Virus record (IMG/VR): IMGVR_UViG_3300045988_124546
Reading direction: 5' to 3' (one strand)
DNA: 64,000 nt
From: a virus
The first letter of the stretch is position 1. Each line of letters begins with the position of its first letter. Positions 17,522 to 24,935 of this stretch are shown here, piece after piece. The notes beneath the pieces were generated by a model that had not been told where the DNA came from, ran no database searches, and saw nothing but the letters and a program-made list of their open reading frames with translations. The position numbers and the translations under genes are program-made.

Positions 17522-17537
17522 GTTTGATTTACAGCGC

Positions 17538-17600
17538 TTTACCCAAAATGGGAAAAGCGTAAGTTATTGATTGTCAAGTTTTCCCCTTAAATGGGGAAAA
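17538..17600 (+). promoter_or_regulatory. Two dyad-symmetric operator-like sites: TTTACCCAAAATGGGAAAAG (17538-17557) and TTTTCCCCTTAAATGGGGAAAA (17579-17600)
   Basis: Both have CCC(C)-N6-GGG(G) arms flanked by T/A runs, 21 nt apart, upstream of gene 17688/17745. Confidence 0.4.
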
Positions 17601-17687
17601 TTACTCATTGTGTATTATTTTTCTATCTTTTCTGAAAATACTTCTCTTCTATAGGAAATAAACACACCAATATTCCACCCTGTAATC

Positions 17688-21188: not shown

Positions 21189-21403
21189 CCGTAGAAGAGT
21201 TAGCCAGTAAAAGATACGGTGGTGAATTTGTTTTCATGTTTGGTCATCTTGAAGGTAGAACAAGATTCGTTTTTGAATGCTTTGATCCCAGGCCTGATCA
21301 CGAAGGTAAAAACACTTATATGGTTTCCTATTTTGAAAAGGAACTTCATGGAAGAGATGTGGTAGATGTGCCGTGTTATATGAATGTTTTGCCAAAATCA
21401 TGA
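21185..21403 (+). CDS. Hypothetical protein (72 aa), start overlaps upstream stop (ATGA)
   Basis: Translational coupling. Confidence 0.5.
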   Translation: MTVEELASKRYGGEFVFMFGHLEGRTRFVFECFDPRPDHEGKNTYMVSYFEKELHGRDVVDVPCYMNVLPKS

Positions 21404-21603
21404 AAACACTACTTTTAAATGTACCTGTATTTTCCGGTAAGATTATTTCTCCTATATGGATTAAGGCCGTAAGAGATTTTCAATCCAAATCCAAGTCAGA
21501 AAGAGACCTGTATTGTTCGATCTGTGGATGTGCAGGAGGGTGTAACTTGTGTAATAATATAAGTAAGTATAGGATTTCAGAACAATTAAAATATTACAAA
21601 TAA
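21373..21603 (+). CDS. Hypothetical Cys-containing small protein (76 aa)
   Basis: ORF overlapping neighbours by a few nt. Confidence 0.4.
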   Translation: MLYECFAKIMKTLLLNVPVFSGKIISPIWIKAVRDFQSKSKSERDLYCSICGCAGGCNLCNNISKYRISEQLKYYK

Positions 21604-21881
21604 TGGAATTAAAAGATTTTAAAGATGTAATTAGAATGATGACAAAAGAAGAGTTCGAATCAACAATTGAAGAAGATATTAAATTCGTTGAAGGATTCAA
21701 GTATTTCTTAAGACATGATGATGCTACAAGGATAGTGGAACACATCAAGTCCGTGTTAGAAGCATCAGTGGACTACTATTATCCTAATCATCCTAAACCT
21801 GAAGCAGAACCAGGAGACATGGGAGAAGTTTCTGATGGATACCACACTTTCAATATCCGAAATAACATTAAAACAATATAA
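21603..21881 (+). CDS. Hypothetical protein (92 aa)
   Basis: ORF. Last gene before the IscB element. Confidence 0.5.
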   Translation: MELKDFKDVIRMMTKEEFESTIEEDIKFVEGFKYFLRHDDATRIVEHIKSVLEASVDYYYPNHPKPEAEPGDMGEVSDGYHTFNIRNNIKTI

Positions 21882-21884
21882 TTT

Positions 21885-22140
21885 CATTATAAGGTTTTAA
21901 TGTACCAGAAATGGTCCGGATATTAGCCTAAGCCTTGAAACGAAGGCTACGTTATTTGAGAATATATAGTTACCTACGGATGTTTACCCAAGTCTGTAGC
22001 TCTAAGGCAAGCGATTAAACAGGAGTAGTGTATTTGCGAAACAGTGTTGCTTGCATCAAAACCTCTTATAACATTGGCGATGGGTACTAACAGGATGAAA
22101 TATTCCTGACTTATGTTGAATAAACATTGAAAACGTTTGT
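21885..22140 (+). ncRNA. Candidate omega RNA (guide RNA scaffold) of the downstream IscB nuclease
   Basis: ~245-nt region with no ORF directly 5' of, and overlapping, the iscB start, which is where IscB omega RNAs are encoded. Contains stem-loops, e.g. agcctt-gaaacg-aaggct (21931-21948) and gcaagc...gcttgc (around 22005-22050). Confidence 0.45.
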
Positions 22141-23365
22141 AGATATGGTGTACGTACAGGATATAAATGGTAAACCTATGATGCCTACAACAAGGCATGG
22201 AAAGGTTAGGAGACTGCTTAAAGAAAACAAGGCAGTTGTTGTAAACCTATGTCCGTTTACCATCAAATTAATGTACGTAACATCCGATTACAAACAAGAA
22301 ATTGTGTTAGGCGTTGATGCTGGAGCTAAACATGTTGGTTTATCAGCAACGACGAAAAGCAAAGAGCTTTACAGCAGTGAAGTTATTCTTAGAAATGATA
22401 TCGTAGATCTTTTATCTACAAGAAGAGAGTCAAGAAGGGTGAGGAGGAATAGATTGAGATATAGAAAACCTCGTTTTGACAACAGGGTAAAAAGCAAGCG
22501 TCCAGGATGGGTAGCACCTTCGGTGAAGTACAAAATAGACGCCCATATTCGTGTTATTGACAATGTATGTTCTATATTACCAATATCTCGTATTGTTATT
22601 GAAGTAGCTCAATTTGATACTCAGAAGATTAACAATCCTGAAATATCAGGTAAAGAATATCAGGAAGGAGATCAACTTGGTTTTTGGAACACAAGGGAGT
22701 ATGTTTTAGCAAGGGATGGGCATAAATGTCAGTATTGTAAAGGAAAATCGAAATCCAAAATCCTTAATGTTCATCACATTGAATCCCGAAAAACGGGAGG
22801 TGATTCCCCTTCTAATCTTATTACCTTATGTGAAACTTGTCACAAAGAATACCATAAAGGTAATATAGATTTGAAGATCAAACGGGGATCGTCGCTTCGC
22901 GACGCGGCCGTAATGGGAATTATGAAATGGAGGTTGTATGAAGAGTTAAAATCCAGATACGACAGAGTTTTTATGACGTTTGGTTACATTACGAAACATA
23001 ATCGGATTAAATACGGGATTGAAAAATCCCATACATCCGACGCGTTTGTCATTTCTATGAACATTAATGCGAAACGAATCGAACGTCAATATTTAAAACG
23101 TTTAATTCGTAGACATAATAGACAAATACATAAAATGAAAATTTTAAAAGGAGGAAAGAAGAAAAACAATCAAGCTCCTTTTGAGGTTTTCGGATTTAGA
23201 TTGTTTGATAAAGTGTTGTATAACAATAAAATATTCTTTGTTTATGGAAGGAGAAAATCAGGGAATTTCAATATCAGGGATTTCAACGGAGAAAACCCGA
23301 AGGATGTTTCACGCAAAAAGTTTAAACTCATTAGAGGTAAGAGGCATCCGATTATATTAAAGTAA
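22127..23365 (+). CDS. iscB: IscB-family RNA-guided nuclease (OMEGA system; PLMP domain, RuvC-I, Arg-rich bridge helix, RuvC-II, HNH, RuvC-III, C-terminal TI-like domain); 412 aa, possible alternative start at 22145
   Basis: Motifs read from translation: NGKPMMPTTRHGKVRRLLKENKAVVV...PFTIKL (PLMP); LGVDAGAKHVGLS (RuvC-I, D64); TRRESRRVRRNRLRYRKPRFDNRVKSKRPGW (bridge helix); IVIEVAQFD (RuvC-II, E159); CQYC...NVHHIE...NLITLCETCH (HNH with CxxC...CxxC); SHTSDAFVIS (RuvC-III, H302/D305); GFRLFDKVLYNNKIFFVYGRRKSGNFNIRDFNG (C-terminal domain). Confidence 0.85.
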   Translation: MKTFVDMVYVQDINGKPMMPTTRHGKVRRLLKENKAVVVNLCPFTIKLMYVTSDYKQEIVLGVDAGAKHVGLSATTKSKELYSSEVILRNDIVDLLSTRRESRRVRRNRLRYRKPRFDNRVKSKRPGWVAPSVKYKIDAHIRVIDNVCSILPISRIVIEVAQFDTQKINNPEISGKEYQEGDQLGFWNTREYVLARDGHKCQYCKGKSKSKILNVHHIESRKTGGDSPSNLITLCETCHKEYHKGNIDLKIKRGSSLRDAAVMGIMKWRLYEELKSRYDRVFMTFGYITKHNRIKYGIEKSHTSDAFVISMNINAKRIERQYLKRLIRRHNRQIHKMKILKGGKKKNNQAPFEVFGFRLFDKVLYNNKIFFVYGRRKSGNFNIRDFNGENPKDVSRKKFKLIRGKRHPIILK

Positions 23366-23402
23366 ATGAACGGATTTAATAAATTTAATAGAAAAACGTA
23401 TC

Positions 23403-23708
23403 ATGTATAATAAAGAAATCGTGATATGCGCGGCCATCTGGGTACAGGATGACAAGAAACGTCCCTATCAGCCCACCAATATACCATCCGGCACCGTGTT
23501 CTGTGGATTGAGACACCCCTCTATACTATCTCAACTTGCGGCATACGGTATAGCCCATAAGAACCGTAGTGTTCAAGGATTTTTGTCAAGCAAGAATCGG
23601 TTTCTAACAAGAGAGGAAGCATCTGAACTTGTTAAGAGCAATAATCAGGAAATGGTAGTAGATAGGAGTGCCATTAGAGAACAATTGTATTCAGAAGATC
23701 TATATTAA
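23403..23708 (+). CDS. Hypothetical protein (101 aa)
   Basis: ORF immediately downstream of iscB. Confidence 0.5.
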   Translation: MYNKEIVICAAIWVQDDKKRPYQPTNIPSGTVFCGLRHPSILSQLAAYGIAHKNRSVQGFLSSKNRFLTREEASELVKSNNQEMVVDRSAIREQLYSEDLY

Positions 23709-24393: not shown

Positions 24394-24565
24394 TATTAAA
24401 GGTAAAAAAGTTGATATTCGTTTAGGCAGAGGTCTGGCGAATCAGATTAAGATAAACAAAACCATCCCAGTGTCTCATAAACCAAAAGAAGAACGTCGAA
24501 TGATGTTTGTTTGTGGTGATGATATTGCTTCTCTTATAAAGCGGTTTGAAAACGAATCAAAGTAA
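24383..24565 (+). CDS. Small hypothetical protein (60 aa)
   Basis: ORF ending just before a canonical terminator. Confidence 0.4.
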   Translation: MKFNIKGKKVDIRLGRGLANQIKINKTIPVSHKPKEERRMMFVCGDDIASLIKRFENESK

Positions 24566-24935
24566 TATAAAGTCGGACATGTGTCTTGTCCGACTTTTTT
24601 TATATATTTGTGGCATGACAAGAGGTTATTATTGGATATCGCAGACAGATGAAACGTTAAATGGCAGAAGCTATTACGTGGCTAAGATAGTAGGAGATAT
24701 CACGTTTGATACTAAACGAAAAAGAATCGTATTTCAAGCTGATAGGTATTTCCCTGTAGGATCTGTTTTCCATTTTACGCACAATTGCTTCAACTATATC
24801 ATAACTTGCCGACTTCGCAAGCCGGGGCTTTGGTTTGAAGCCAGGAGAGAAGATTCGGGCCCTATTTGCCCTGAAGATATTGAGCGCTTTGAATCGGGAA
24901 GGTTTATACATAGAGATGGTTACATACATACATAA
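24546..24935 (+). CDS. Hypothetical protein; track ORF reads through the terminator hairpin, so the probable true start is ATG 24615 (MTRGYYW..., 106 aa)
   Basis: In-frame ATG at 24615 lies after terminator and -7 box. Confidence 0.5.
   Translation: MKTNQSNIKSDMCLVRLFLYICGMTRGYYWISQTDETLNGRSYYVAKIVGDITFDTKRKRIVFQADRYFPVGSVFHFTHNCFNYIITCRLRKPGLWFEARREDSGPICPEDIERFESGRFIHRDGYIHT
24572..24601 (+). terminator. Canonical rho-independent terminator: gtcggaca-tgtgtct-tgtccgac followed by TTTTTTT
   Basis: 8-bp perfect stem, 7-nt loop, 7-T run. Confidence 0.7.
24603..24610 (+). promoter_or_regulatory. -7 box TATATTTG directly after terminator, upstream of ATG 24615
   Basis: Match to TAnnTTTG. Spacing to ATG is short, so possibly a leaderless or short-leader transcript. 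Confidence 0.25.

Follow-up and report, generated by a model that had tools for sequence, protein, structure and literature searches.

IscB–omegaRNA elements are the ancestors of Cas9, and IscB-like proteins annotated as "HNH endonucleases" are common in phages. To our knowledge, the only natural role shown for IscB–omegaRNA is the restoration of excised copies in one bacterium. We analyzed an iscB locus in the virus record IMGVR_UViG_3300045988_124546 of IMG/VR, whose whole stretch of 64,000 nucleotides is called the window in what follows. We propose that window positions 21853..23402 constitute a non-autonomous IscB–omegaRNA element of the ISC, or IS200/IS605, kind (an OMEGA system), which resides in an epsilon crAss-like phage and spreads among co-infecting phages by RNA-guided homing, that is, as a gene drive. 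We assign this reading a probability of about 0.6.

The ISGst IscB elements of Geobacillus stearothermophilus resemble the window element in that no tnpA lies inside them, that their guide is taken from flanking DNA, and that their target-adjacent motif (TAM) agrees with the ATG described below; indeed, the TAM of GstIscB, TTCAT, reads ATGAA on the iscB strand, and the omegaRNA lies at the transposon right end (10.1101/2023.03.14.532601). The Geobacillus elements differ in being chromosomal, in having hairpins at both their left and right ends, and in having a cognate TnpA in the same genome, and their IscB was shown to restore excised copies. The window element, in contrast, is phage-borne, has no left-end hairpin and no TnpA that we could find, replaces neighboring genes, and varies on its guide side among relatives. 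Most ISC elements likewise encode only IscB or IsrB and no transposase, but they have been described with IS605-like termini in bacterial or archaeal chromosomes, without a described behavior in phage populations (PMC13565253). As for the effector itself, the OgeuIscB–omegaRNA complex (PDB 7XHT, 7UTN, and 8CSZ) shares with the window system the RuvC–HNH architecture, the aligned catalytic residues, and a HEARO-type omegaRNA, whereas OgeuIscB is larger (496 aa versus 406-412 aa) and only distantly similar.

Two other systems provide parallels for the population behavior. The free-standing homing endonucleases of T-even phages (SegB, SegF, and Mob, responsible for intronless homing or localized marker exclusion) are likewise selfish nuclease genes flanked by conserved phage genes; some close relatives carry such a gene and others do not. 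These enzymes also act on the allele lacking the gene and cause co-conversion of flanking markers (PMC13565253). However, they recognize DNA through protein contacts, whereas the window element would do so through an RNA copied from its flank, and since specificity would be set in this manner, any rearrangement of the flank would re-target the nuclease. The IS605 TnpB gene drive in plasmid populations (PMC11870625), or "transposon non-restorative homing" (PMC13565253), similarly represents the TnpA-independent spread of an OMEGA system by cutting of the empty orthologous site on another replicon, but it involves TnpB rather than IscB and an experimental plasmid system. TnpA-independent homing has been demonstrated for TnpB on plasmids and, for phages, has been proposed as theoretical only (PMC13565253). 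In the literature library that we searched, we found no paper linking IscB with crAss-like phages. The kind of element discussed here, an OMEGA IscB, is already known; the new points are at the population level, namely, the phage-to-phage polymorphism, the docking at ATG start codons, the replacement of genes, and the nested alternative guides.

Anatomy of the cassette

The cassette spans 1.55 kb (21853..23402, plus strand) and contains only an omegaRNA gene, iscB, and a 37-nt tail. Its components and immediate borders are the following, the 16-nt length of the guide having been adopted from published IscB work.

21603..21852, plus strand: truncated 5' fragment of a DUF2829-family gene, about 84 codons, whose frame continues into the omegaRNA up to a stop at 21879-21881
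21837..21852, plus strand: predicted omegaRNA guide, 16 nt (GGATACCACACTTTCA), the flank directly 5' of the scaffold, as set by the start of HEARO
21853..22140, plus strand: omegaRNA scaffold, composed of the HEARO match (21853-22091) and two conserved hairpins to about 22140; equivalent to the transposon right end
22145..23365, plus strand: iscB coding sequence, 406 aa from the ATG at 22145 (412 aa from the TTG at 22127, the start in the list of open reading frames [ORFs])
23366..23402, plus strand: 3' tail of the element, 37 nt, at the position of the transposon left end; conserved between contexts within the subfamily
23403..23405, plus strand: ATG with which the 101-aa gene 23403..23708 starts; also the putative TAM at the insertion point

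The initial annotation, which was made from the sequence alone, had seen here an IS200/IS605-type IscB insertion at 21885..23400, between two small phage genes. The iscB gene and the IS605 kind of the element are borne out by our results, whereas a simple insertion between intact genes is not, and the left edge proposed at the time falls 32 nt within the omegaRNA. The nearest annotated genome, that of the epsilon crAss-like phage csAssE-Sib (OR575929), is about 95% identical in the flanks and has no iscB at this locus. Window positions 21581-21854 align with 86.6% identity to the first third of the csAssE-Sib CDS (coding sequence) WOZ57315 (251 aa, DUF2829 family), and the homology stops sharply at 21852/21854, where HEARO starts (CACACTTTCA followed directly by ATATCCG), to return at the ATG at 23403 of the 101-aa gene. 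The cassette stands in place of 773 bp of csAssE-Sib, which comprise the last two thirds of the DUF2829 gene and the whole of a gene for a 91-aa zinc-ribbon-like protein. The ORF 21603..21881, previously regarded as an intact small gene, is actually the truncated start of the DUF2829 gene reading into the omegaRNA. It had also been expected to lie next to 23403..23708 in phages devoid of the insertion, but the remainder of the DUF2829 gene and the 91-aa gene separate the two; no relative shows these ORFs adjacent, which led us to reject a simple insertion between them.

Polymorphism at the locus

Eighty relatives of this locus were retrieved through the 101-aa gene. About 45 of them carry the DUF2829, 91-aa, and 101-aa genes without iscB, so that alleles devoid of the cassette do exist; the expectation of the initial annotation that an empty site would define both ends of the element is not supported. 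In the other loci, about 35, the cassette abuts the 101-aa gene and the 91-aa gene is never kept. The two states, cassette on the one hand and DUF2829 plus 91-aa gene on the other, are mutually exclusive at this locus, the 101-aa gene and the upstream genes being common to both, and a form with both an intact 91-aa gene and the cassette was found neither in the 80 loci nor in a pattern scan of IMG/VR. Because the cassette is polymorphic, being absent here from about 45 of 81 close relatives, and is present in many contexts (see below), the situation envisaged earlier as the contrary case, in which all relatives carry the locus and no empty site exists, does not apply.

The state of the locus is linked to its flank over short distances. 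The nearest neighbor shares the cassette state in a proportion of 0.83 when neighbors are defined within 306 nt and of 0.62 when they are defined at 307-700 nt, compared to 0.50 in permutations. Ten of the 35 cassette-bearing loci have an IscB-less relative that is at most 1% divergent at 307-700 nt, and the same cassette, with the same junction, was found on different flanking haplotypes. In one IscB-less allele (L153:3860-4030; L numbers designate related loci), the DUF2829 gene runs straight from codon ~43 into the ATG that begins the 101-aa gene. The left breakpoint does not coincide with an ATG, and the allele may descend, by loss or escape, from one that bore the cassette.

Left junctions and the ATG motif

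Cassette-bearing loci at this site share a single right junction but display at least 13-14 left junctions, all of which are joined to the same omegaRNA 5' end. The rightmost of them falls at codon 5 of the 91-aa gene and the leftmost at the start codon of another gene, 1.4 kb upstream, and the matching deletions measure 264-1424 bp. In intact relatives, the sequence at every left-junction site continues with ATG (ATGAAT, ATGTTC, ATGAGT, ATGATT, and so on). Overall, ATG was present at all of 19 independent left-junction sites and in 13 right flanks. Chance was rejected as the cause of this pattern since ATG occurs at just 2.2% of positions (0.022 per position). AT microhomology alone is also insufficient: the element starts with ATA whereas the deleted segments all start with ATG, and with G following AT in 23% of cases, the corresponding probability is about 5e-9 for 13 sites. 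The same behavior was observed at two further loci (a 28-bp segment bounded by two ATGs; the context of L049/L051 versus L053). Short deletions of 4-25 nt that are anchored at the omegaRNA end and are not beside ATG also occur, each in one or few loci.

Given that all left-junction sites continue with ATG in intact relatives, we infer that ATG is the TAM and that it lies 3' of the sequence matching the guide. It differs from the TAM reported for OgeuIscB, NWRRNA. ATG on the iscB strand corresponds to CAT on the transposon left-end strand. A short target motif had originally been sought at the left end of the element; ATG sits at the right end instead (the transposon left end in the IS605 convention), and what borders the left end is the guide. 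A variant omegaRNA without the first AT-rich hairpin (L012:5740-5800 and L108:2465-2525) is joined to codon ~10 of the DUF2829 gene, where the intact sequence reads ATG.

Predicted targets of the guides

The window guide, GGATACCACACTTTCA, occurs once in the window, where its 16 nt continue into the scaffold (ATATCC) and not into ATG; with no second match, self-targeting was rejected. At least 120 IMG/VR contigs, on the other hand, have an intact DUF2829 gene in which ATGAATTG directly follows the guide sequence, at least 64 of them with a perfect 16/16 match and 56 with one mismatch. The version of the target with one mismatch is matched by the guide of a sister variant.

The alternative guides appear to be ordered along the locus. 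Six guides have junctions to the right of that of the window, and the window has lost their targets; it retains ATG-flanked matches, with 0-1 mismatch, to three observed guides from junctions located further left. These matches are listed below together with a fourth ATG-flanked sequence.

21220..21235, plus strand: match with one mismatch to the guide of a relative (junction at W72 codon 18), with ATGTTT directly after it; a predicted cleavage site of that variant
21261..21276, plus strand: match without mismatch to the guide of a relative (junction at W72 codon 31), followed by ATGCTT
21384..21399, plus strand: match with one mismatch to the guide of a relative (junction at W76 codon 10), followed by ATGAAA
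21587..21602, plus strand: ATG-flanked 16-mer at the DUF2829 start codon, without mismatch to a putative L012/L108 guide, followed by ATGGAA

The last of these was rejected as a target of the L012/L108 variant: the real junction of that variant lies at DUF2829 codon ~10, the corresponding guide has no match in the window, and no observed relative is known to target 21587..21602.

IscB and its omegaRNA

The ORF 22127..23365 (plus strand) matches the Pfam domains RRXRR (1.5e-59, residues 8-181) and HNH (1e-10, residues 201-244), and it matches solved IscB structures at E = 4e-45 to 5e-44, with OgeuIscB at 4e-44. It thus has the IscB layout of an N-terminal RRXRR/PLMP region and a RuvC domain that is split by an HNH insertion. 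It is also matched by phrog_119 ("HNH endonuclease") at 1.4e-65. The catalytic Asp of RuvC-I, Glu of RuvC-II, His-His of HNH, and His..Asp of RuvC-III are all present in the alignment to the IscB chain, the motifs aligned to the catalytic sites being lgvDaG, iviEv, vHHie, and shtsDaf. Since neither relatives nor Pfam align before residue 7-8, the true start is probably the ATG at 22145, which yields a protein of 406 aa. The dN/dS ratio (nonsynonymous to synonymous substitution rates) of iscB is 0.07-0.12 in comparison with six relatives, and the gene is under purifying selection.

The Rfam family HEARO (RF02033) matches positions 21853..22091, directly upstream of iscB and on the same strand, with 99.3 bits for a gathering score of 83, and is the sole above-threshold Rfam match in the window. 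The consensus structure computed with RNAalifold from 14 relatives contains 56 pairs, 11 of which show compensatory changes, and some of the compensated pairs belong to the two hairpins that separate the HEARO match from the start codon, e.g., to that at 22096-22113. Stand-alone HEARO/omegaRNA copies with no downstream IscB ORF were observed at L011:1131-1375 (95.3 bits) and also at about position 4000 of L019, 620 of L045, and 9460 of L078. The stand-alone HEARO of L011 lies between clamp-like and SSB-like genes, and the same contig holds two IscB copies elsewhere, so a single IscB may be served by several guides.

Occurrence in other phage contexts

IMG/VR contains 481 relatives of the window IscB, and several contigs carry two copies. 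The best 80 of these 481 relatives are 82-99% identical and lie nearly all on crAss-size contigs of 75-160 kb. Clustering of the flanks separated at least 15 distinct phage contexts. In every context, the conserved DNA begins at one omegaRNA 5' end (ATATCCGAAATAAC or ATAATCGCGAATAAT), and it ends 0-37 nt past the iscB stop codon, directly against an ATG. In all 13 contexts tested, the ATG at the right flank was the start of an ORF no shorter than 82 aa. Four pairs of filled and empty sites (L011 versus L043/L047, L024 versus L035, L041 versus L011, and L045 versus L067) document scarless insertion exactly 5' of ATG, with no target-site duplication and with a breakpoint that is ambiguous by 2 nt (AT). 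In the L024 context, the last ~16 nt of the tail (TTAACGCAAAAAAGGAA, L024:7185-7225) nearly duplicate the left flank (GTAACGCAAAAATAAGGAA, L024:5690-5709), a feature not seen in other contexts.

The initial annotation had suggested looking for additional copies in the genomes of Bacteroidales hosts; a scan of bacterial genomes, Bacteroidales included, yielded no close copy and only distant relatives. The best matches there were an IscB with 88% identity to that of the window on a 20-kb contig of "Vibrio olivae" (L161, NZ_JBHMEP010000019.1), which is probably contamination by a crAss-like phage and not a Vibrio gene, and then a match at 68% on a 6.9-kb contig of a Phocaeicola metagenome-assembled genome.

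Element ends and the transposase

As already noticed in the initial annotation, no Y1/HUH TnpA is encoded next to iscB, and our searches extend this result. Neither a Y1/HUH TnpA nor a serine recombinase was detected with Pfam among the 74 ORFs of the window, and an IS200 TnpA sharing 98% identity with a Salmonella record gave no tblastn match in the window or in 160 related phage loci. A TnpA motif screen was also negative, the search extending over ±4-6 kb at the 160 phage loci, and no crAss-like phage was present among the listed TnpA matches in the phage collection. Nevertheless, a missing TnpA does not exclude the IS200/IS605 family, because its non-autonomous members lack TnpA by definition. 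TnpA-less iscB is in fact the rule, at about 98.5% of iscB loci (Meers et al., 10.1101/2023.03.14.532601), and the absence is consequently not special in itself. The search for subterminal palindromes, another proposal of the initial annotation, gave a divided answer. Folded as single-stranded DNA, the omegaRNA (right) end is strongly structured (z = -6.3), whereas the left end, in the tail, and likewise the final 135 nt of iscB fold no better than shuffled sequences (z = 0.5 and 0.7), and neither a left-end hairpin nor terminal inverted repeats were found beyond chance.

These results bear directly on the best-surviving alternative, that of a non-autonomous element of the usual IS200/IS605 type, mobilized by a Y1 TnpA that acts in trans and is encoded by the host or by an unseen part of the phage. 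The left junctions would then be products of TnpA, the right end being cleaved and joined just past a nearby CAT/ATG and the intervening DNA being excised as a circle. We find this scenario credible yet rather doubtful. It accounts well for insertion exactly beside a fixed short motif without duplication and for the observation that every large deletion anchored at the right end stops at this motif, as HUH transposase chemistry would have it. Moreover, the TnpA/IscB TAM of the Geobacillus elements is the same motif, about 98.5% of iscB loci depend on a TnpA encoded elsewhere, and the strong folding of the omegaRNA end is what one would expect subterminally at a right end. However, no Y1_Tnp was found in the window or around the 160 phage loci, the paper on csAssE-Sib mentions genes of the TnpB family only (PMC11054128), bacterial genomes yielded no related element with which a TnpA could be shared, and the tail end has no hairpin. 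The joints predicted from precise excision are also missing for the two commonest junction types: that of the window-type junction is absent from IMG/VR, and those of the window-type and 91-aa gene codon-5 junctions are absent from the metagenome contigs of JGI, the latter scan having been run without a positive control. Finally, TnpA chemistry does not predict that only the guide side should vary, with at least 13-14 left junctions for a single right junction.

Discussion

We favor RNA-guided homing of the IscB–omegaRNA element among co-infecting phages, which may operate as follows. Transcription of the co-oriented upstream genes would generate an omegaRNA whose 5' 16 nt derive from the flank, here a sequence inside the DUF2829 gene. 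The IscB–omegaRNA complex would cut co-infecting sibling genomes in which the guide sequence is followed by ATG, i.e., those with an intact DUF2829 gene, and we propose that the copy of the window itself is safe because the scaffold, not ATG, comes after its guide sequence. Repair of the cut genome by recombination from the IscB-bearing genome would copy the cassette into it and delete the 3' part of the DUF2829 gene together with the 91-aa gene. The outcome would be non-restorative homing, a gene drive with co-conversion. A variant joined further left would have lost the targets of the variants to its right and yet could still cut those, and this combination of immunity and cutting ability would explain the nested series of junctions.

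Several points weigh against this proposal. Everything in it beyond the anatomy of the cassette is deduced from sequence comparisons. The window-type junction is common to only 4 IMG/VR contigs, and since this junction is rare and its target is common, the variant has not swept. The decay of linkage with distance from the cassette is also expected from plain recombination. About a quarter of the copies at the locus are frameshifted or lack the omegaRNA and the IscB N-terminus (L084, L107, L121, L137, and L149; L089, L115, L134/L025, and L135), although such decayed copies are as expected for a selfish element that decays after its spread. ATG is retained in 350/375 cases at used sites versus 876/1046 at unused ATGs, so that there is no overall excess of TAM loss at used sites and no clear signature of an arms race. 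The one exception is the codon-5 site of the 91-aa gene (equivalent to L104:3736; L083-L160), which is the target of the commonest variant and where synonymous changes of ATG to TTG/GTG are found in 19/40 IscB-less alleles; in contrast, the other used ATGs are nearly invariant. Lastly, homing gives no account of the arrival of the first copy at a new site or of the origin of new left junctions.

For the latter, we tentatively suggest a transposase-free re-targeting mechanism, an idea about which we are more skeptical than confident. Deletions anchored at the omegaRNA 5' end might arise by AT microhomology or at the end hairpin, and each would set a new 16-nt flank beside the scaffold. Only those deletions whose new flank precedes ATG in rival genomes would provide a working guide, and each variant further to the left would be immune to all the guides on its right while still cutting the genomes that carry them. 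The result would be a one-way "deletion ratchet" of competing drives that erode accessory genes. Variation restricted to the guide side would be accounted for if such deletions were then selected for ATG-flanked guides.

Another possibility is that IscB serves as a weapon of phage against phage without being copied: it would cut competitors that have the intact allele, and the cassette would be inherited vertically and exchanged by ordinary recombination. The predicted targets are indeed in sibling phages and not in the carrier, and free-standing phage homing endonucleases are known to give a competitive advantage of this type (PMC13565253). We nonetheless regard a pure weapon as improbable, given that flanking haplotypes differ between loci with the same cassette and the same junction, which implies transfer, and that, in recombination-proficient phages, a cut can hardly be dissociated from homology-directed repair; the idea overlaps with homing rather than excluding it. 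We consider it very unlikely that the cassette is an inactive remnant, or that it was domesticated and now does something other than cut DNA (RNA-guided repression, for example), in spite of the frameshifted or truncated copies at the locus and the rarity of the window-type junction, as the RuvC and HNH catalytic residues are intact, dN/dS is about 0.1, compensatory changes keep the omegaRNA structure, the guide has perfect ATG-flanked targets, and the locus is polymorphic and not fixed.

The locus and its relatives supply a natural data set: hundreds of gut phage genomes that are nearly identical and either carry or lack the cassette, a readable motif (ATG), and at least 13-14 alternative guides at one site, for which targets are predicted in rival alleles. 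It opens the questions of IscB gene drive among viruses, of guide change without spacer acquisition, and of the shaping of accessory regions in the most abundant human gut phages, and it provides a compact IscB with a simple predicted TAM. Should the ratchet be true, an OMEGA system would be seen to renew its guides in nature, and IscB homing from virus to virus would have its first case at the population level.

Other features of the region

A 76-aa ORF at window 21373-21603, upstream of the truncated DUF2829 gene, is not in csAssE-Sib and is present in many IMG/VR relatives, which constitutes another presence/absence polymorphism. Conversely, csAssE-Sib has an extra 1.1-kb segment with an "antirepressor" gene (window 17532-17619 versus L001:3522-4625), a further indel in the same accessory block. 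At 24480-24607, a weak, sub-threshold match to the L20 leader corresponds to a terminator-like GC hairpin followed by a run of T (about 24566-24605), at the end of the block of small genes.

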